Below are positions 13,352 to 28,643 of a DNA stretch of 64,000 nt, one piece after another; the stretch's first letter is position 1, and the number at the start of each line of letters is the position of its first letter. This DNA comes from a virus, in the IMG/VR virus record IMGVR_UViG_3300021962_000040, positions 1 through 64,000 of that record. One strand, given 5' to 3'. The position numbers were made by a program, and so were the translations under genes. The notes under the pieces were generated by a model. The model did no database searches and was not told where the DNA came from. It worked only from the letters and a program-made list of their open reading frames with translations.

Positions 13352-13559
13352 ATGAATAAGAAGATCTCTTCCAGGCTCACCCTGGTTGTGGATTTGATTG
13401 AACATAGTTTACTGTTCACCTGTTGTAAGTGCACTACAGAGCAGGGTCCATCACATTATACCTTGAGGCATTTAAAACTTATTGGGTAATTACTCCCATA
13501 AGTCAAGGTTTCTTTCAACGGTGCTAATCTGTCTTATGTAAGAGATCTTTCTTACTCAT
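13352..13559 (-). ncRNA. putative structured ncRNA (~210 nt multibranch) between tRNA-Leu and the helicase
   Basis: Ends pair over ~19 bp (13352-13370 with 13540-13559); internal helices ACCTTGA/TCAAGGT, CTTATGGG/CCCAATAAG, TGAACA/TGTTCA, CCAGG/CCTGG; no ORF in the track. Confidence 0.65.
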
Positions 13560-13561
13560 AG

Positions 13562-13644
13562 TAGCCGGGATGGGACTTGAACCCACACGAGCAAATGCTC
13601 AAGAGATTTTAAGTCTCTCATGTCTACCTTTTCATCACCCAGCT
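13562..13644 (-). tRNA. tRNA-Leu (anticodon UAA)
   Basis: Acceptor AGCTGGG/CCCGGCT, D-loop GGTAGAC, anticodon arm AGAGA-CTTAAAA-TCTCT, long variable arm, T arm GTGGG-TTCAAGT-CCCAT; CCA not encoded. Confidence 0.92.
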
Positions 13645-13647
13645 AGT

Positions 13648-13767
13648 GTGCTGTCTTTCCAGCAGTCATAGCTTTTCTTACAGCTAACCGTGTTCCCTTA
13701 TCTCCAGAGACCAATAGCACCCGTTTATACTTTGGGTACACCAAGTGCTTGTCTTTCCAAGCTGTCA
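13648..13767 (-). repeat. two copies of a TGAC[AT]-GC..GGAAAGAC..GCAC hairpin motif
   Basis: TGACTGCTGGAAAGACAGCAC (13668-13648) and TGACAGCTTGGAAAGACAAGCAC (13767-13745). Confidence 0.7.
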
Positions 13768-13812
13768 CGATTTTACTAGTGTCAGACAATTGTTTTGCCT
13801 CTCATTACCTCA

Positions 13813-14061
13813 CTAGTTTTGGGGAGCCTCTACCTGATTACTGGCATCCATTCCTCCGAGCAGGGGAAAATTTCTTTGTTTCATCTCTTCATCAAGAGCT
13901 TGATCTGGACTATAGATTTTGTTGCATTTACCACATATGTGTGCTTCACCATCTTCAGTCCAAGTATTAATATACTCACCTTCTTTTATATGAGGTGAAC
14001 ATGTTTCACAATTACAGGCATTCTGAGTTCCACAATGGGGACAATAAAAAGCTCCTAACAT
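13813..14061 (-). CDS. Cys-rich Zn-binding hypothetical protein
   Basis: CPHC...CNCETC...CGKC. Confidence 0.65.
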   Translation of the reverse strand: MLGAFYCPHCGTQNACNCETCSPHIKEGEYINTWTEDGEAHICGKCNKIYSPDQALDEEMKQRNFPLLGGMDASNQVEAPQN

Positions 14062-14074
14062 ATTAATAATTTTG

Positions 14075-14148
14075 TGATCCCATCTGGACTTGAACCAGAA
14101 ACCTACAGCTTAGAAGGCTGTTGCTCTATCCAATTGAGCTATAGGACC
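14075..14148 (-). tRNA. tRNA-Arg (anticodon UCU)
   Basis: GGTCCTATAGCTCAATTGGATAGAGC-ACAGC-CTTCTAA-GCTGT...GGTTCAAGTCC...TGGGATCA cloverleaf. Confidence 0.95.
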
Positions 14149-16790: not shown

Positions 16791-17190
16791 TTTTAATCAT
16801 CTCAAATATACTCAAACTATGCTCATATGGTGTTTCTTCCCCATAAAAAAGATTACATTTCATGCTATGATGGTAACAATCATGTTCATTATGCCAGTCA
16901 TTACTCTTTATGACTTGGCCAAAAACATAACCATCTTCAATAAGTCCAAGATCAATAAGCCTATCTTCAAAGAAGTGTTTGCTCTTATGACCATATGGGA
17001 CTTTCACTTTGAAATAATCATTAGGCTCAAAAATGGATATCCTATCCTCTGTAAGCAGCATGTTGATTATACCATTTAGAACATCTGATGTAGAATTACT
17101 GACAATGAGATTGGCAATTTGATCTGATACAGGAGATTTAAGATGTCTTTGAATGAACTTTGCTATCACTGGTTTACTAATCTGTACCAT
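16684..17190 (-). CDS. hypothetical protein
   Basis: 168 aa ORF. Confidence 0.65.
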   Translation of the reverse strand: MVQISKPVIAKFIQRHLKSPVSDQIANLIVSNSTSDVLNGIINMLLTEDRISIFEPNDYFKVKVPYGHKSKHFFEDRLIDLGLIEDGYVFGQVIKSNDWHNEHDCYHHSMKCNLFYGEETPYEHSLSIFEMIKIEKSQIPHYNGTYIPRVIDRALERVSDLEEDDISE

Positions 17191-17419
17191 TTAGTGTTTG
17201 TTTTAATAATTTCAACTTACGTTCAGCATTTTCTTTTGCTTCTTTGCTTATAGAGCTTGTTGTTAAGACAAAGCTTAAGTTCCATTCTTCTCTTGATAGC
17301 TCATTACGGGATAAACCCCTGAGCCATTGCATGTATTCTTGGTCTGTCATATAAAGATTTATGAATAGAGACGGGCTGGTTTCCCACTTACGCCATAAGG
17401 ACCCATCAGTATTCTCCAC
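17177..17419 (-). CDS. hypothetical protein (start uncertain)
   Basis: ORF overlapping the next gene. Confidence 0.5.
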   Translation of the reverse strand: MENTDGSLWRKWETSPSLFINLYMTDQEYMQWLRGLSRNELSREEWNLSFVLTTSSISKEAKENAERKLKLLKQTLNGTD

Positions 17420-17500
17420 TTACCAAACCATAGCTATATACTACTACTGTTATATAGTAATATATTCCTGGTACTGTTAGTATCCGGTATACCGGAAACT

Positions 17501-18097
17501 TCAGACATAGTTATTGATATTGATTAGCACAGATCCATCAATGGAAAAATCTAAATGTTCCTTGATAAGTACTTGTGAATCTTCATTTTTAACTTGTCTG
17601 ATAATACTTTTAATTTGCTCAGCATCCATCTTTTTAAAAGAATCCATGAATCTTTTATAAGGTTTCATTATCTCATGCTTTTGCTCAATCATGTGATATG
17701 TACTTAAAAAAGCTAGACCTTCTCTTTTTGTATTGACAGATACCGTGTACTCATAAGGATTGTAAAAACTTATTGAGAACAAATAATCCTTATCATATTC
17801 ATACATCAGGATATGATCATACTTATATGCATAAGAACTATGTACATAAGTCTTACTAACCATTTGAAGTTTATTCATTAACCACTTTGGTGTCTTGTAT
17901 GTTAATGTAAACTTTAGTTGTGTATGATTTTTGTCAATAAAATAAGACTGTGAGAGTGAATAATTAAAGAATTTTGTCCAAATACTTATAATATTATTCT
18001 CACGATCTGCTGAAATATTACTTTCATTCATACACCGTGGTCCATAATTCTTTATCCTTACAAGTGTTGCTTGCTTATTCCCCTCTTTTATCTTCAT
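17501..18097 (-). CDS. hypothetical protein
   Basis: 198 aa ORF with ATGA coupling. Confidence 0.65.
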   Translation of the reverse strand: MKIKEGNKQATLVRIKNYGPRCMNESNISADRENNIISIWTKFFNYSLSQSYFIDKNHTQLKFTLTYKTPKWLMNKLQMVSKTYVHSSYAYKYDHILMYEYDKDYLFSISFYNPYEYTVSVNTKREGLAFLSTYHMIEQKHEIMKPYKRFMDSFKKMDAEQIKSIIRQVKNEDSQVLIKEHLDFSIDGSVLININNYV

Positions 18098-18399
18098 TTC
18101 ATACCAATTTCAATGTGAAAACAAAGAATTAGTAATTGAACTGAGGGATCAACACGATTATATGCACCAAAGAATCCAAATGCTGGTACAATAGCACCTC
18201 TAAACTTTGGTTTAGGCATTCTAATCATCAATGCAACAATGGCTAACAACATAGCAACTAACAGGAATACTGCTAAACTTGGTGCAAACCAAATCTGTGC
18301 TTTAAATAGACTTACAATAAATGTACTGTAAAGTATGGGCAATGCTAATACTATGGCTGCTTTTGCTAAGAAGCCACAAAAAATTTTGTGTTTGTTCAT
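18094..18399 (-). CDS. membrane protein
   Basis: At least two hydrophobic helices. Confidence 0.65.
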   Translation of the reverse strand: MNKHKIFCGFLAKAAIVLALPILYSTFIVSLFKAQIWFAPSLAVFLLVAMLLAIVALMIRMPKPKFRGAIVPAFGFFGAYNRVDPSVQLLILCFHIEIGMK

Positions 18400-18400
18400 C

Positions 18401-18550
18401 TTATTCTAATTTAATGGGTTTTCTACCTGTTCCGTCATCAGCATAGATAACAGTGTTTTCATCTTTTCTAACAATTGCTACATTAAGAGAAGCGGTAATA
18501 AATTCTTTACCGCCTCTCATGTAGTAATAAACAAAAGTTTCTTCAATCAT
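18401..18550 (-). CDS. 49-aa hypothetical protein
   Basis: Manual translation MIEETFVYYYMRGGKEFITASLNVAIVRKDE...; fills the gap exactly. Confidence 0.6.
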   Translation of the reverse strand: MIEETFVYYYMRGGKEFITASLNVAIVRKDENTVIYADDGTGRKPIKLE

Positions 18551-18821
18551 AACTTGTGCAATAGTTTAAGTAATCATCATCATCTCTATCCTGAATTTCA
18601 GCTGCATCATGCATAACTGCTAATTCAAGTAGTTCATCATTCTCTTGTAACTCATCTTGTATTTCTTCATTAGATGGAAATGATACATCTTTAGTAAATA
18701 ATCTTAAAGGTACATCCTGTCCATCAAAGAACCAAGTATAAGTAGCATTTCTAAACAATGCTAGTCCTATCATGTTATCACATGACACGAACATATCTGG
18801 TTTTAGGATTAGAACTTTCAT
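18543..18821 (-). CDS. acidic hypothetical protein
   Basis: 92 aa coupled ORF. Confidence 0.6.
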   Translation of the reverse strand: MKVLILKPDMFVSCDNMIGLALFRNATYTWFFDGQDVPLRLFTKDVSFPSNEEIQDELQENDELLELAVMHDAAEIQDRDDDDYLNYCTSYD

Positions 18822-19045
18822 AGTCTGTTTTTTGTGTTAAGACCTTCTTCTAATTCTGATTCTTCTTGCCACCAGATGGCAATTCCAATTAGTGCTACCA
18901 TATAGGCAACTTGTGCAGCAATAGCCCATATGCTCCATTCAGAGATTGGGTGTGCAAATACACTTCCTAGGGTAATCATACCCTCCATGAATAGACCAAC
19001 TAACCATACTGTGGCTAGTTTAGTCATGAATTTAACTTTCTTCAT
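18818..19045 (-). CDS. two-TM membrane protein
   Basis: Two hydrophobic helices; AAAACCAAA leader. Confidence 0.65.
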   Translation of the reverse strand: MKKVKFMTKLATVWLVGLFMEGMITLGSVFAHPISEWSIWAIAAQVAYMVALIGIAIWWQEESELEEGLNTKNRL

Positions 19046-19172
19046 CTTGATTTGGTTTTAAGTGGGGTTTGTTTTTGGTTTTTCTTGTATACTTTTTTTT
19101 GTTTTTATACACGTTGGGCCGTGTTGCCATTCTGATTTCCTGAATTGTTAGTTCTATCTTTTTCATCTTCAT
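19032..19172 (-). CDS. 46-aa basic micro-protein (ArfA-like motif)
   Basis: Manual translation MKMKKIELTIQEIRMATRPNVYKNKKKYTRKTKNKPHLKPNQDEES. Confidence 0.55.
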   Translation of the reverse strand: MKMKKIELTIQEIRMATRPNVYKNKKKYTRKTKNKPHLKPNQDEES

Positions 19173-19269
19173 AACATTGTTGGCAGATGTGAACTTCATC
19201 ACAACTACAAGTTAATTCTGGGGATATGCTATAAAGCATAAACATATCCATTGCGTCTTCATACAGCAT
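19105..19269 (-). CDS. 54-aa Cys-containing micro-protein
   Basis: Manual translation MLYEDAMDMF...CSCDEVHICQQCYE... Confidence 0.5.
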   Translation of the reverse strand: MLYEDAMDMFMLYSISPELTCSCDEVHICQQCYEDEKDRTNNSGNQNGNTAQRV

Positions 19270-19271
19270 AA

Positions 19272-19502
19272 TTATCCATTTAAGATTTCAATTTCCTTTT
19301 TAACGAGTGCATCAGTAACTTCCTTCTGCATCTTACATGTGTATTCATAAAGCTCAACAAAGTAATAAACATCACATCCGGCTTCATCTATGCACACTTG
19401 ATTGATCTTGTCCATCACCGATTGTAATTCAGCTAGTCTCTTATCTTCACGATTCTTAATCATTTCAAGTGTCATAAAATTTAATTCATCTAATAGTTTC
19501 AT
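19272..19502 (-). CDS. hypothetical protein immediately downstream of the twister ribozyme
   Basis: 76 aa ORF. Confidence 0.6.
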   Translation of the reverse strand: MKLLDELNFMTLEMIKNREDKRLAELQSVMDKINQVCIDEAGCDVYYFVELYEYTCKMQKEVTDALVKKEIEILNG

Positions 19503-19523
19503 ATAAATAGATTTTAATTAATA

Positions 19524-19579
19524 CTGTACCACTCTGTATTTACACGGGCTTGTGACCGTCATTGGCTACATTAGTACAA
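19524..19579 (-). ncRNA. twister self-cleaving ribozyme (type P1)
   Basis: TGTAC-TAA-TGTA-GC-CAATG-ACGG-TCACAA-GC-CCGT-GTAAA-TACA-GAG-TG-GTACA aligns element by element with the O. sativa twister as recalled (CCGCC-UAA-CACU-GC-CAAUG-CCGG-UCCCAA-GC-CCGG-AUAAA-AGUG-GAG-GG-GGCGG), with compensatory P1, P2, P4 and T1 (CA/TG) pairs. Confidence 0.92.
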
Positions 19580-20532
19580 GGGCTGAGTGTTGACCCTTAT
19601 GGCAATAGTTTTAGAATGTTTCCATCCTTTACACACACCAACATTACTGCAGGTATATTGCACGTTCACAGATTTAGATGTCTGCCATCACTACCTTGAG
19701 AGTTATAGTTTCATTTTCACACCAACTTCCTTGCGGGATTCACAGGCTGCCACCTGTTAGATAGATACTACTCACTCTACTTACTATCTGTCTTGCGGAC
19801 GTCAAGTCTGTACATATTTCAGTACAATAAGAACATTGTGTTCCCAAGGTCCAAGAAGGATTTTGCTTTGTCATATTAGTTATGGGATACAACCCTAAGT
19901 TAATAAGAAAAGGATGGATGAAGGAAGTTCTCCTTGGTTGTATAACATGCTTGCTTTTGACAAGTTTAGTTACCAACTCCCTTCTACTTTCAGCGGCCAG
20001 GCTTACTCATTGATTACAATTACTCACGACACGGTATTTCTACCAGCATCTTCACTGTAAACTAATAACAGATCCCCAATTGGCGGTTGGTACTACTGTT
20101 ATCTAACCATACACTTATTACGCTTTCACGCTCAACACCATTTCCATCTGGTGTCTACAACTCTCTTACCCTGTAGGGCCATTCCAAGTTGCAGAAGTAT
20201 GATTACCTTTCAGTGGCATGCTAATGCATGGCCTGTTCTTTCTTAAGGAACAGACTTTATTCCATCACTGGATTATCCTTTGGTCACGAAGGCTGACCTG
20301 TTGTTTCAGTAACCTGACGAGCAGGCTTAACGTACACACCATGAGTATTTCAACTCTGAGGGTAACAACTTGTATACTTATACAGAGATACATGCTAACC
20401 CATTACGTCTAATGGAGCATATACTCTGGATATACATTTAGGTATATCAGCCTATTGGTCTTGTAACTATACTGGACCAACCCACGCCAGCAGCTTACTG
20501 GATATTTGCCTGGTTAAAGGAAAGGCAACAAT
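19573..20532 (-). ncRNA. putative large (~950 nt) highly structured ncRNA
   Basis: No credible CDS; more than 20 hairpins, GCAA/GAAA loops on the minus strand, long-range helices 19909-19918/19621-19630 and 19842-19850/19693-19701. Confidence 0.7.
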
Positions 20533-20536
20533 ACTA

Positions 20537-20806
20537 TTATCTGAAGTTATCATATGGACTATGATAAGTTATTTGGTCAGAGCCAGGGATGTACTTCTCA
20601 AAGGTTACATTAGGACCTTGCCAGTAAACCATCTTGCGGGTTATCTGACACCAAAGTCTTGCCATCCAAAGAGTGGGAAATACAAAGACCCGGTAACCTT
20701 TTCTCATATACTGAAGCTTAAGAAACAGTAGAGAGTAAGTATCCCTAGTAGTGATAGACTCATATGTATTATAAGTGGTCACTATGTATGTTTTTTTCTT
20801 GATCAT
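20537..20806 (-). CDS. hypothetical protein (likely start MIKKKTY at 20806)
   Basis: 3' part of ORF 20537..21025; the 5' extension overlaps structured non-coding sequence. Confidence 0.5.
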   Translation of the reverse strand: MIKKKTYIVTTYNTYESITTRDTYSLLFLKLQYMRKGYRVFVFPTLWMARLWCQITRKMVYWQGPNVTFEKYIPGSDQITYHSPYDNFR

Positions 20807-20917
20807 AGCTATATCTATTATTATGGTGAGACAAGTGGAATGATAGGTTTGATTGTGGTAATATGCGGGGTATTTGGCCACCCACTCAAACAGTAACACA
20901 CAAACAAATAAAAAATA

Positions 20918-20944
20918 AAGCAGTTTTAACTGGTGCTTAGCAGG
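20918..20944 (-). ncRNA. small H-type pseudoknot followed by a U-rich tract
   Basis: CCTG-CTAAGCAC-CAG-TTAAAAC-TGCTT: S1 CTG/CAG, S2 AAGCA/TGCTT. Confidence 0.45.
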
Positions 20945-21094
20945 TAAGTGGTCCTCTTGTACAGATTCATCCGCTATCAACTGGTGAATGTGTATGCAAG
21001 GTGTGTGCAAGGTGGAACAAAGCATAGTTAACTTATCTGCAAGTAACTATGCTCAGTTCCTTCTGGGTTCAACTGGGTTTCCCCAGTTCCTGCT

Positions 21095-21433
21095 TTAGGC
21101 AGGTTCTACCCAGAAGAGGCCTTCTAGTGCCTCCCCAGTTTCACGGTTGACAACAGGATTGTTGCTCAATTGGAAACCTGGGATTTCATCCCCTACATTA
21201 AGTTTGCTTTGCAAGCCTTTAATGGTGGGATGATTGGCTTTCATTGACTCACCGGTCTTTGGATCGGTTAAGGCAAGGATGCCAAAGCTGAGATTCTGTT
21301 GGTTGCGTGCACCAACTTGGAATCCAGCAATCTCAGCCTTTGCCTGTGTCAAAGGTGCTGAGGAGACAATGATGACAGCACTCTGTGTGTCAGCATTGAC
21401 TTTAATCTTACGGAAGAAAACTGATTTGCTCAT
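21095..21433 (-). CDS. hypothetical protein, first gene of the leftward arm
   Basis: 112 aa ORF; hairpin AACTGGGGAAACCCAGTT follows the stop. Confidence 0.75.
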   Translation of the reverse strand: MSKSVFFRKIKVNADTQSAVIIVSSAPLTQAKAEIAGFQVGARNQQNLSFGILALTDPKTGESMKANHPTIKGLQSKLNVGDEIPGFQLSNNPVVNRETGEALEGLFWVEPA

Positions 21434-21623
21434 GGTAAATTATTTTTTTAGGATTAAACTTATGGGGGCCACCCCCCTGTCAAAATTTAGCCGGGGAGCG
21501 GTTCCATAGCACCCCTCAAGAATGCAACACATAAATTGGTTGTAGGTACGGGGGGTATGTGCATCTCTGTAGAAAGATGGGGGGATGGTTGGACGGGGTT
21601 AAAAAATTTGGTATATTAGAAGT
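21434..21623. promoter_or_regulatory. divergent strand-switch region with G/C homopolymer runs
   Basis: Transcription polarity flips here; GGGGGCCACCCCCC, CCGGGGAG, TACGGGGGGTA, GGGGGGATGG in an otherwise AT-rich genome. Confidence 0.6.
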
Positions 21624-21884
21624 ATGGAGAACCGTATAGAAGAGTACATTGATATTGATAGAGCTTACTATAGTTCCTATAGGATAGTGACTAAGAAGAT
21701 TACCTTTGAGGATCTATTAGATGAGGATAGTGATAAAGGTTATTCCACTCTTCTTATACATGATCCTGAGAAGGAGATCACCCCGGATGTTGTGAATGAC
21801 CTTATAGATTATTTTGTGGGGCTGGAGGAATATGAACTCTGTGCTGAATTAAAAAATATCTTGGATAAAAAAATAATATCCTAA
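21624..21884 (+). CDS. hypothetical protein
   Basis: 86 aa; YF..LEEYELCAEL motif. Confidence 0.7.
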   Translation: MENRIEEYIDIDRAYYSSYRIVTKKITFEDLLDEDSDKGYSTLLIHDPEKEITPDVVNDLIDYFVGLEEYELCAELKNILDKKIIS

Positions 21885-21909
21885 ACCTTTTTTATTTAAC
21901 TTTTTTTGG

Positions 21910-21917
21910 TATATTTG
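21910..21917 (+). promoter_or_regulatory. Bacteroidota -7 element TATATTTG
   Basis: Consensus match upstream of 21944. Confidence 0.5.
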
Positions 21918-21943
21918 TTCTGAACAAATAAAAACCAAAAATC

Positions 21944-22243
21944 ATGGAACAGAATTTTTCTGAACAAGAAGTCCAATTATCTAAAGAACAATTGGCACAA
22001 CGTAGAAAAGAAATCACTGAATTCTACAAGAGTAACATCCAGCATTTGAAAGTACAGAAGGAGTATGAGCAACTCTTAACTGACATTGAAGAGCTCAGAG
22101 CAAAAAGAATGCAGGCTCAGATGTTCCTTGCTCAAGCCTTTGCTGCTGGTAAAGATGAAGAGGTTGAGAAAGCTGAAGCAGATTTTAACAAAGCTATGGC
22201 TGACGTAGAAGAGACTGATGGTCCAACATTAAAACCTATTTAA
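21944..22243 (+). CDS. coiled-coil hypothetical protein
   Basis: 99 aa; AAAACCAAAA leader. Confidence 0.75.
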   Translation: MEQNFSEQEVQLSKEQLAQRRKEITEFYKSNIQHLKVQKEYEQLLTDIEELRAKRMQAQMFLAQAFAAGKDEEVEKAEADFNKAMADVEETDGPTLKPI

Positions 22244-26184: not shown

Positions 26185-26460
26185 ATGGAAAACCAGAAAA
26201 TTGTGCCAGTGGGCAAGAGAGTATTGATCAAGGAGAAGAAACCGGGGGAGTTCTTTCCGGGGACCAAGATAATGATTCCTGATGCAGCTAGAGAAAAGAC
26301 ATTTCAAGGCTACATTGTGGGCATTGGTAAAGAAGTAACTGAAGTAAATGTAGGTGATCTTATTCAGTATGTAGATTACGCAACACCCGTTGAGATGAAG
26401 CATAATGGTGAGAAGCATTTACTTATTGCTCAAGGTGATATTCTTGCTGTGATTGAATGA
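26185..26460 (+). CDS. groES: GroES-like co-chaperonin
   Basis: IVPVGKRVLIK, IMIPDAAREK..QG.IVGIG, V.VGD, GEKHLLI..GDILAVIE. Confidence 0.85.
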   Translation: MENQKIVPVGKRVLIKEKKPGEFFPGTKIMIPDAAREKTFQGYIVGIGKEVTEVNVGDLIQYVDYATPVEMKHNGEKHLLIAQGDILAVIE

Positions 26461-28643
26461 ACAGAATAGTTCCAACATATGAAAATGGTCAGTGGACTAC
26501 TACGGAGTTTTATACTACGCAGGAGTTCATTGACTTTTTACTGAGCATCTTCAAAGAACCTGGTCAGTATGAGTATGATGAAACATCATTCTTGTTTAAC
26601 AAAGAAGCACAAAACTTCAACAAGAATGGTTTTTATTGCTCAGCTCCTTTTAGATCAAAAGACTTTAACGTTTATTGGGAAGCAGAAAAGGAGAAGTGCC
26701 GTAATGGTGCAATCTACAGGAATGCTGGAAAGACCTGGTATCTTACAAGAGACTACTACATGTGGTTAAACTTTCTTCCAATCTATGATAAAGAAGAGAA
26801 GAAATATGGGTTTGCCAAAGTCAGAGATGCACAGTATCATATGGCTATCTATGAACTGTTGGCTGAGTTAAGTAATAAACACTCAGCTATTTTAAAGAAA
26901 CGTCAGATTGCTTCTTCTTACTTCCACATGGGTAAGCTTATAAACACCTACTGGTTTGAAGAAGGTAGTGTATGTAAGATTGGTGCTTCACTAAAAGACT
27001 ACATCAATGATAAAGGTTCTTGGAAATTCTTGGATGAGTACAAAGATTTCTTGAATGAACATACTGCTTGGTATAGACCAAGTAATCCTGAAAAGGTTCT
27101 TTTATGGCAACAACAGATTGAAGTAAGAGTTGGTAACAGAAAGACTACCAAAGGTTTAAAATCTAAGATACAAGGTGCCTCTTTTGAGAAGAGTGCAACA
27201 ACAGGTGTCGGTGGTCCTACTACATACTTTTTCCATGAGGAAGCTGGTATTGCTCCAAAGATGATGGAGACTTATGAATACTTAAGACCTGCAATGTCTT
27301 CCGGTATGGTTACTACAGGTATGTTTATTGCTGCAGGATCTGTGGGTGATTTGGAACAATGTAATCCTTTGAAGGACATGGTTCTTAATCCAACAAACAA
27401 TGACATCTATGCTGTAGAAACAAACCTGCTTGATGCAGATGGAACCATTGGCTTAGCCGGCTTATTTATTCCTGAGCAATGGTCAATGCCCCCATACATT
27501 GATGAGTATGGTAACTCATTAGTTGAAGAGGCTTTGAAGGCAATTCATGCTGAAAGAGAAAAGTGGAAGTCTGAACTAAACCCAGAGCAGTATCAGTTAC
27601 GTATATCTCAGAAACCAACCAATATAGCTGAAGCATTTGCTTATAGAAAGGAGTCTATCTTTCCACAGGGTATTATTTCTAAGCAACTTAAAAGGATTGA
27701 AGACAAAGAATATTCTTTTGAGCATATTGAATTGGAAAGAACTGTAGAAGGTATTGAAGCTAAAAGAAGTAACAAACTTCCTATATCACAGTTTCCGGTA
27801 GATAAGAAGATGCAAGATAAATCTGGTGTCCTTGTTGTATGGGAAAGACCTGTTAAAAATCCTTCATTTGGGATGTACTATGCATCTGTTGACCCCGTGT
27901 CAGAAGGTAAAACAACTACTTCAGATTCACTCTGTAGTATCTTTGTTTACAAGAGTGCTGTAGAGGTTACAAGAGAAACTCCTGATGGATATGAATCCTT
28001 TATTGAGAAAGATAAAATTGTAGCAGCTTGGTGTGGTAGATATGATGATGTTAACAAGACTCATGAGCAATTGGAAAAGATCATTGAATGGTACAATGCT
28101 TGGACTGTTGTGGAGAACAACATCTCTTTGTTTATCCAGTACATGATCTCTAGAAGAAAGCAGAGATACTTGGTACCAAAGCAACAAATTCTATTCTTAA
28201 AAGATCTTGGTTCAAATGCAACAGTATACCAAGAGTATGGATGGAAGAACACCGGTATTCTATTTAAGAGTCACCTCATCTCTTATGCAATTGAGTTCTT
28301 AAGAGAAGAGACTGATACTGAGTTAGATAACCATGGAAATATTCTCAGTACTACATTGGGTATTGAAAGGATTCCAGATCCTATGTTGTTGAAAGAGATG
28401 CTTGCTTACCAACCTGGTGTCAACGTTGACCGTTTGGTAGCTTTCTCTGCATTGGTTGCATTTGCCAAAATTCAACAGTCAAACAGAGGATTTACTAAAA
28501 GAAAAGAAGAAGATGCAACAAAGAATTTGCAAAATCAAAATAATTTGTATAAATTAAAGTATAGTCCGTTTAAAAACTTGGAACGTAATAAAACTATGAC
28601 TTCAGGTAGACCAGGGAGATCTGCTTTTAAAAACTTTAGATAA
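26457..28643 (+). CDS. terL: terminase large subunit
   Basis: LKKRQIASSY, FFHEEAG Walker B, nuclease ASVDPV...SDSL, VENN, NVDRLVA. Confidence 0.9.
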   Translation: MNRIVPTYENGQWTTTEFYTTQEFIDFLLSIFKEPGQYEYDETSFLFNKEAQNFNKNGFYCSAPFRSKDFNVYWEAEKEKCRNGAIYRNAGKTWYLTRDYYMWLNFLPIYDKEEKKYGFAKVRDAQYHMAIYELLAELSNKHSAILKKRQIASSYFHMGKLINTYWFEEGSVCKIGASLKDYINDKGSWKFLDEYKDFLNEHTAWYRPSNPEKVLLWQQQIEVRVGNRKTTKGLKSKIQGASFEKSATTGVGGPTTYFFHEEAGIAPKMMETYEYLRPAMSSGMVTTGMFIAAGSVGDLEQCNPLKDMVLNPTNNDIYAVETNLLDADGTIGLAGLFIPEQWSMPPYIDEYGNSLVEEALKAIHAEREKWKSELNPEQYQLRISQKPTNIAEAFAYRKESIFPQGIISKQLKRIEDKEYSFEHIELERTVEGIEAKRSNKLPISQFPVDKKMQDKSGVLVVWERPVKNPSFGMYYASVDPVSEGKTTTSDSLCSIFVYKSAVEVTRETPDGYESFIEKDKIVAAWCGRYDDVNKTHEQLEKIIEWYNAWTVVENNISLFIQYMISRRKQRYLVPKQQILFLKDLGSNATVYQEYGWKNTGILFKSHLISYAIEFLREETDTELDNHGNILSTTLGIERIPDPMLLKEMLAYQPGVNVDRLVAFSALVAFAKIQQSNRGFTKRKEEDATKNLQNQNNLYKLKYSPFKNLERNKTMTSGRPGRSAFKNFR

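Follow-up and report, generated by a model that had tools for sequence, protein, structure and literature searches.

A GOLLD RNA of an aquatic phage whose 3' end is probably released by an adjoining twister ribozyme

Introduction

GOLLD RNAs are among the largest non-coding RNAs of bacteria and phages, and the family was reportedly described for the first time by Weinberg et al. in 2009. To our knowledge, the function and biogenesis of GOLLD have not been established, and the same is true of what most twister ribozymes of bacteria and phages do in nature. Here, we describe a locus in which these two kinds of RNA adjoin each other on the minus strand of a viral genome: a kilobase (19524–20532) in the first 64 kb (64,000 nucleotides [nt]; hereafter, the window) of the virus record IMGVR_UViG_3300021962_000040, which comprises 117,753 bases and is rated complete. 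An earlier reading of this kilobase from its letters (hereafter, the sequence-only reading) had proposed a large ornate non-coding RNA of a novel kind, with GOLLD named as an analogy only, and a twister ribozyme right after its last hairpin.

RNase P cuts at the 5' end of a transfer RNA (tRNA). GOLLD genes flanked by tRNAs in tRNA arrays are described in a cryogenic electron microscopy (cryo-EM) study (bioRxiv 10.1101/2024.12.08.627333) and in a review (PMC12990946). They have a processable element directly 3' of the last hairpin, as does the locus described here; in those loci, the end would come from the host RNase P, whereas here it would come from the RNA itself. According to the same two sources, GOLLD forms RNA-only cages, and a multimeric cage is known for the env-38 and S. 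agalactiae RNAs; in the env-38 structure, loop L27 joins seven regions (bioRxiv 10.1101/2024.12.08.627333). Twister ribozymes, according to PMC5408937, have three essential helices (P1, P2, and P4) and three optional ones (P0, P3, and P5, with P3 present in 78%), form two pseudoknots, and cleave at a U-A step, the A of which is conserved.

Compared to published GOLLDs, the RNA of the window is alike in its full-length match to the 3' domain, in its covarying helices, in its location in a phage, and in its variable 5' domain (~394 nt, 19985–20378), which brings the total to ~800–960 nt. It differs in that it scores below the curated cut-off, does not lie beside tRNAs (the nearest, at 13562–14148, are 5.4 kb off, whereas its relatives in larger phages have GOLLD with flanking tRNAs), belongs to a phage with a distantly crAss-like terminase, and adds both a conserved leader (20380–20532) and, immediately behind GOLLD, a predicted self-cleaving ribozyme. 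This ribozyme shares with type-P1 twisters the elements P1, P2, P4, T1, and T2, the U-A dinucleotide, and the conserved letters of L1 and L4; it differs from them in lacking P3, in one L4 letter whose change is compensated in T1, in having a definite genomic partner, and in that sister phages carry at the same site a form with a 54–98 nt arm at P5 that Rfam does not detect. ROOL is likewise a large, phage-borne, cage-forming RNA that is often found near tRNAs, but the sequence and fold in the window are those of GOLLD.

Results

The kilobase without genes is a GOLLD RNA

The genes from ~12.0 to 21.4 kb of the window are nearly all on the minus strand, and the kilobase lies among them between two listed open reading frames (ORFs): upstream, an ORF of 162 amino acids (20537–21025, minus strand), the stop of which is ~5 nt before the conserved non-coding stretch, and downstream, an ORF of 76 amino acids (19272–19502, minus strand) with its ATG at 19502. 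The ~1 kb between them contains short ORFs only, the longest of which (78 amino acids, TTG start, 19740–19976) lies inside the covarying RNA and the GOLLD model match given below, in agreement with the sequence-only reading, which had seen no credible gene here. A permissive Rfam scan of 19300–20800 matched 19580–19984 (minus strand) to GOLLD (RF02032) over the entire model (1–416 of 416; 88.8 bits, E = 2.4e-23), and over the whole 117,753-base record the match had E = 4.5e-25. RF02032 models the conserved 3' half of GOLLD only, and this half is hereafter called the 3' domain. The conserved blocks UCAAAAG, AAAGCAAAA, and CGCAAG are in place within the match, and the last hairpin (GGGU, loop CAACACUCA, GCCC; 19580–19596, minus strand) is invariant in all nine aligned relatives. 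By its position as the final hairpin of the Rfam model, this hairpin should correspond to P27/L27 of the cryo-EM study. ROOL was matched neither across the window at Rfam gathering scores nor across 19300–20800 at E ≤ 10.

Judged by its sequence, the gene-free kilobase is therefore a GOLLD RNA, which belongs to a known family and is not a new RNA. The novelty that had been claimed for it is largely removed by the full-length Rfam match, albeit one that stays below the curated cut-off. The same holds among related GOLLD loci, where 13 of the 13 that were scored matched the model over its full length at 72.6–104 bits, all below the cut-off, showing that the curated Rfam threshold misses the GOLLD clade of aquatic phages as a group. 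Rfam scans in which the E-values were computed over several pooled loci lost GOLLD in L002 (recovered when this locus was scanned alone) and in L057 (handles of this kind denote our stored loci); weak long matches get lost in this way, and a blank in a pooled scan does not equal absence. Among the testable features of GOLLD and twister, the score cut-offs are the only ones in which the RNA of the window falls short.

Base-pair covariation supports the fold

Relatives were gathered through the 162-amino-acid ORF, the relatives of which in six viral contigs served as a synteny anchor (6 viral loci). Two sequence words gave further relatives: a 17-mer from the invariant last hairpin, GGGTCAACACTCAGCCC, matched 10 stretches from viruses and 96 from metagenomes, and a 22-mer from the leader matched 5 viral ones. 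Nine aligned 3' domains (19580–19984, minus strand) gave 60 RNAalifold pairs, 37 of which have compensatory changes. With a local GNRA hairpin added, the structure comprises 66 pairs with 93.6% of alignment cells paired, and 42 of the 66 pairs are changed on both sides. None of 500 shuffles reached as high on any measure, and sliding the partners by 1–3 columns left just 9–13 pairs changed on both sides. Compensatory changes were also present in the 5' part (19985–20545; seven sequences), in 66 of 148 RNAalifold pairs; the middle of the 5' domain diverges in L003. When compared by eye to the Rfam structure line, the covarying helices agree with those of RF02032. The covariation that the sequence-only reading had expected among homologues is thus present, and, together with the model match, it bears out the view that the minus strand of the leftward gene block encodes a large ornate non-coding RNA; every hairpin listed in that reading exists on this strand.

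One of the two long-range helices that had been proposed also holds. The helix ACCTTGGGA/TCTCAAGGT (ACCUUGGGA at 19842–19850 with UCUCAAGGU at 19693–19701, minus strand) has compensatory changes in all eight aligned pairs (8/8) with 100% of cells paired, and it is the one set in square (pseudoknot) brackets in the Rfam GOLLD consensus. The other, a 10-bp helix (19909–19918 with 19621–19630), is not conserved: all 10 pairs form only in the window and L002, 8 of 10 form in L004, and the helix is mostly broken in the other six sequences. Its rival, the local GNRA hairpin GGAUG-GAAA-CAUUC, is maintained through changes.

A minimal twister ribozyme lies two bases past the GOLLD match

The stretch 19526–19577 (minus strand) matches the twister model RF03160 over its full length (1–68 of 68; 56.8 bits, E = 9.8e-12) as a minimal type-P1 twister without P3 or P5. 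Its three helices, P1 (GUAC/GUAC, 19574–19577 with 19526–19529), P2 (UGUA/UACA, 19567–19570 with 19535–19538), and P4 (ACGG/CCGU, 19556–19559 with 19544–19547), have 4 bp each, with standard pairs throughout, and both pseudoknots, T1 (L4 with L1; CAC/GUG, 19552–19554 with 19530–19532) and T2 (GC/GC, 19565–19566 with 19548–19549), are intact. The loop UAA (19571–19573) contains the predicted cut, between U19573 and A19572. The segments UAA, GC, CGGUC-CAAGCCCG, UAAA, and GAG-G match the capital letters of the twister model, and the single departure, CCC to CAC in L4, has its counterpart in the T1 partner, where GGG has become GUG. Run over both strands of the window, a generic twister descriptor matched this site alone, with no second twister upstream of GOLLD. 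By every sequence test, the twister placed here by the sequence-only reading is real, with self-cleavage predicted after U19573. From the end of the ribozyme to the ATG at 19502 there are 23 nt.

Twister ribozymes recur behind GOLLD in related loci

A census with the 17-mer of the last hairpin comprised 125 loci. Against a profile of the nine aligned 3' domains, 61 of them reach ≥90 bits, and the 60-mers downstream of these 61 comprise 35 distinct sequences, one contig being counted twice. A twister follows GOLLD in at least 9 of these 35 distinct contexts, in two structural forms. The minimal form stands 2 nt past the GOLLD match in two contexts (the window group with L095, L103, and L112; L120) and 60 nt downstream, behind a 14-bp hairpin, in two others (L054, L078). 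Five contexts (L002/L119, L079, L070, L088, and L057) have the second form, which combines P2 UGCA/UGCA, T1 CCC/GGG, T2 CC/GG, and P4 CUCAC/GUGAG with a branched arm of 54–98 nt at the position of P5, closed by a helix of 7–14 bp (hereafter, the long-P5-arm form). L060 has an ambiguous fragment after GOLLD, and contig G001 reads N at the twister site, with the conserved flanks present. The other contexts have a possible hepatitis delta virus (HDV)-like ribozyme (one context), a tRNA at 23–37 nt (four), tRNA-Asp at 93–96 nt (four) or at 228–252 nt (seven), the same intervening element as in the tRNA-Asp contexts without a tRNA in the available sequence (three), a terminator-like hairpin (two; clear in L075, weak in L003), or nothing that we recognised (two).

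Four distinct twisters behind GOLLD of this clade are detectable with Rfam (window, L120, L054, and L078; 56.4–58.6 bits), and among these four, P1 changes from GUAC/GUAC to GUAU/AUAC and P2 from UGUA/UACA to UGCA/UGCA, with both sides compensating. Differences between the minimal and the long-P5-arm forms in P2, T1, and T2 are paired, as the twister fold predicts; for T1 and T2, there are only two independent forms, which gives these paired changes small statistical weight. A descriptor run over 1.85 Mb of stored loci had six distinct matches, five of them directly after the GOLLD end. On both ribozyme flanks, L002 is 98.5% identical to the window, yet it holds the long-P5-arm form, which looks like replacement of a cassette at a fixed site. 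The sequence downstream of the twister differs among loci and GOLLD is always upstream, which argues that the ribozyme belongs with GOLLD and not with a downstream gene.

Some further twister-like sequences were noted. The sixth descriptor match, in L007 (2735–2886), is long-arm twister-like with a compensated P4 (CUCAU/AUGAG) and lies ~275 nt behind an ORF homologous to the upstream one. The L007 locus had no GOLLD match in Rfam, and a smaller RNA may take the GOLLD position there. In L054 (231–290) and L078 (271–330), the 14-bp hairpin between the GOLLD end and the twister has an internal stem, and the tail of the released RNA would be ~65 nt. A combined pattern of GOLLD end and twister core, searched in a collection of viral contigs that excluded the record of the window, matched 14 stretches, none of which was GOLLD-like by eye in the 70 nt upstream; two of them (L021, L029) may hold unrelated twister-like cores. 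A 345-nt RNA-library contig (run X17, record 13) resembles the window in nothing but the 32-nt twister core (19529–19560), which the two share, and the same ribozyme core thus occurs in another sequence context of that sample.

The 5' end and a conserved leader

The variable half of the RNA, the 5' domain (19985–20378, minus strand), has 81.6% identity to the distant locus L038 from ~20368, covaries, and is covered by RNA-library contigs up to 20310–20360 in three runs. The segment in common with L038 begins at ~20368–20378, and the first helix common to all relatives, GUAUACA (20371–20377) with UGUGUAC (20331–20337), covaries. Upstream of it, the alignments show a conserved structured leader (20380–20532, minus strand) with three or four small hairpins followed by a long covarying hairpin (~20382–20427). 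About 110 nt of the leader (20425–20532) scarcely vary among the window, L002, L003, and L004, four phages in which the neighbouring protein is 55–97% identical, and compensatory changes occur in the hairpin GAYAUAC/GUAURUC and in the long hairpin. The leader was also found in L040 and L041 and is absent from L038; each of the five viral stretches found with its 22-mer lies beside GOLLD. It had no Rfam match at E ≤ 10.

The 5' end of the RNA could lie at ~20378 or at ~20532. If the leader extends the 5' domain in this clade, the RNA would measure ~960 nt; if it serves processing or regulation, the RNA would measure ~805 nt. We lean slightly to the latter on a weak hint from the RNA libraries. 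The length of ~950 nt given by the sequence-only reading is accordingly uncertain, since the part shared with L038 starts near 20378 and RNA-library contigs reach ~20360.

GOLLD in RNA libraries

About half of the sampled words of 19300–20700 are contained in six metatranscriptome runs. In four runs, contigs cover 19600–20046 (X15), 19603–20346 (X16, tiled), 19624–20310 (X17), and 19608–20360 (X18), showing that the GOLLD body is present in RNA libraries from at least three studies. Sequencing-adapter letters directly abut 19600, 19608, and 20360. Among the listed contigs, none covers 19557–19599 in any run, 20047–20422 in X15, or most of 20361–20532 in X16–X18. The depth of the GOLLD contig in X15 is 1443.8, and its neighbours have 6.2, 13.4, and 157.8, figures of a kind that cannot rank parts. 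The gaps and depths hint, at best weakly, at an abundant RNA from ~20360–20378 to just past 19600, and we do not count them as evidence.

Elements behind GOLLD in other relatives

A candidate for another kind of ribozyme, HDV-like of the CPEB3 type, was seen 4–6 nt past the last GOLLD hairpin in L047 (16–91; equal to L038, L009, and L128) and, as a variant, in L153 (from ~9510). Like the twister of the window, it would cut just after GOLLD; the window does not contain it. By eye, the candidate has a P1 of 7 bp with G.U at +1, a P2 of 7 bp, P3 GCC/GGC, and L3 UUCACGU as in the CPEB3 model, and its Rfam score in L047 is 20.6 bits (E = 0.03), the cut-off being 35. A descriptor of the HDV-like fold was unspecific (191 distinct matches in 1.87 Mb), and the two near-identical copies give no covariation, so that this reading of L047 depends mainly on the weak Rfam match and the position.

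In larger phages, a conserved element of ~90 nt stands between GOLLD and tRNA-Asp (L035, L036, and L037; also L058, L061, L067, L071, L091, L101, L108, L117, and others). Its closing helix is UUAUUCAG/CUGGAUAA; of its two hairpins, one is variable and the other reads GGAAG-AGCGAGA-CUUCC. In some loci, the element is followed by ~135 nt more. Three segments of this element were scanned against Rfam at E ≤ 5 without a match.

Genomic context of the locus

Neither flanking ORF was assigned to a PHROG family. The large terminase (26457–28643) is 27% identical to the terminases of crAss-like and Flavobacterium phages; this single match is the sole basis for a crAss-like label, and 'distantly crAss-like, aquatic' is a fair description of the phage. 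A distant-mode blastn search of the region against 50,697 phage records had no match. The only Rfam matches at gathering level in the window, at ~13.4–14.1 kb, are a freshwater-1 RNA (RF02979, 75.9 bits, over its cut-off) and two tRNAs (13393–14148, minus strand), 5.4 kb further along in the direction of transcription.

A scan of 19200–20800 for sites resembling sigma-70 promoters or terminators yielded neither on the minus strand, with promoter counts not clearly above those of shuffles. The Bacteroidota-type -7 box TANNTTTG had no minus-strand site in 16810–22189 and occurred at chance level overall (96 found, 89.7 expected). The RNA is probably cut from a longer leftward transcript, and both of its ends would need processing.

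Discussion

We propose that the window carries a GOLLD RNA, transcribed leftward, the 3' end of which is released by the adjoining twister in an aquatic phage, and we consider this proposal probable. The RNA would be transcribed leftward with the neighbouring genes, and the polymerase would read through the end of GOLLD; the twister would then fold and cut between U19573 and A19572. The cut would free the GOLLD RNA and leave UUGUACU on it as a 7-nt tail that carries a terminal 2',3'-cyclic phosphate; the messenger RNA of the downstream 76-amino-acid ORF would start with a 5'-OH at A19572, with the twister as its leader. The ribozyme would take the part that a flanking tRNA (with its RNase P cut) or a terminator appears to have at other GOLLD genes. 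The role of the twister as the maker of the GOLLD 3' end is likely in view of the sequences compared. On this reading, the ribozyme would be active and would determine, in vivo, where the mature RNA ends on its 3' side, and having a defined end would matter to the RNA.

Several observations weigh against the proposal. Both RNAs score below the Rfam gathering scores, GOLLD with 88.8 bits against 150 and the twister with 56.8 bits against 67.2; the shortfall of the twister arises because the whole P3 stem is missing in the alignment. The single-sequence fold of 19573–20378 (-223.9 kcal/mol) is better than those of shuffles, as the sequence-only reading had expected, but modestly so (z = -2.39, 20 shuffles), and the case for a structured RNA is made by covariation and the model match, not by folding energy. 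The long-P5-arm form escapes the Rfam twister models, and its parse carries less weight because it is a pattern fitted by hand around these sequences. P1 is broken in L070 and L088, L088 also has a mismatch in P2, and L057 is without the 3' half; some long-arm copies may be decaying and not all need be active. GOLLD stands without a recognisable ribozyme or tRNA behind it in L003, L040/L041, and the L034 group, and these ribozyme-free relatives show that the twister is not obligatory. The RNA-library contigs end at 19600–19624, 27–51 nt short of the predicted cut and not at 19573. Such an end would be expected of random priming upstream of a tight terminal hairpin and is not proof of a cut; the runs were available as contigs, which cannot show ends, strand, or level, and RNA libraries may contain DNA.

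The ribozyme-free relatives, the broken P1 and P2 of some long-arm copies, and the contig ends would suit a twister that is real as a motif and yet inactive or slow in vivo, with the GOLLD end produced by unrecognised termination or by a 3' exonuclease trimming to the last hairpin. We regard this as unlikely, since at least 9 of the 35 contexts have a twister directly behind GOLLD, with P1, P2, T1, and T2 showing compensatory changes, the same site holds two structurally different twisters in phages with ~98.5% identical flanks, and the minus strand has no terminator-like site in 19200–20800. It is somewhat less probable still that the twister chiefly serves the 76-amino-acid ORF, either by giving it a ribozyme-capped leader with a 5'-OH or by uncoupling it from an abundant RNA, with the trimming of GOLLD as a by-product. 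The 23 nt between ribozyme and ATG are in its favour, although release of GOLLD by the twister is compatible with them as well, one cut yielding both ends; in L120 and L019, however, the same twister is not followed by the 76-amino-acid ORF, and other sequences follow the twister in L079, L119, L054, and L078, with GOLLD upstream in all of them.

Doubts about the large RNA itself carry much less weight. A separate family that merely resembles GOLLD might be suspected from the score below the gathering threshold, which the 13 scored relatives share, and from a 5' half that no model covers. Such a family is very improbable, because the match spans the whole model, including the helix in pseudoknot brackets, the terminal hairpin, and the conserved blocks, the covarying helices coincide with those of the model, and published GOLLDs likewise have a conserved 3' and a variable 5' domain. 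We give practically no credence to a protein-coding region or to a spacer with chance hairpins: the 78-amino-acid TTG ORF and the modest folding energy could be cited for it, but that ORF lies within the GOLLD match and base-pair covariation governs the substitutions among relatives throughout.

The contexts compared here tentatively suggest a wider picture than release of GOLLD by the twister of the window, in which interchangeable 3'-end cassettes stand behind the last GOLLD hairpin: the minimal twister, the long-P5-arm twister, possibly an HDV-like ribozyme, a tRNA, or a terminator. We hold this picture with rather less confidence, at slightly under an even chance. The component families are known, and what is new is their arrangement, with a self-cleaving ribozyme as a 3'-end module of GOLLD. 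Our literature searches found no published description of a GOLLD-twister pairing, although the supplementary locus lists of the founding papers and of the cryo-EM study could already show ribozymes next to GOLLD; in the one paper found that names both, the co-mention is unrelated.

For the two families, the recurrent junction links a giant RNA with the twister and predicts an exact 3' end, U19573 with a cyclic phosphate, and the Rfam cut-offs miss both the GOLLD clade of aquatic phages and the long-P5-arm twister form. If cassettes are indeed swapped, this would imply selection for a short and exact 3' tail; a longer tail could, for example, interfere with folding around the terminal loop or with cage assembly. 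Such interchangeable cassettes, if real, would give phage twisters a concrete natural job and would allow native GOLLD ends to be predicted to the nucleotide.

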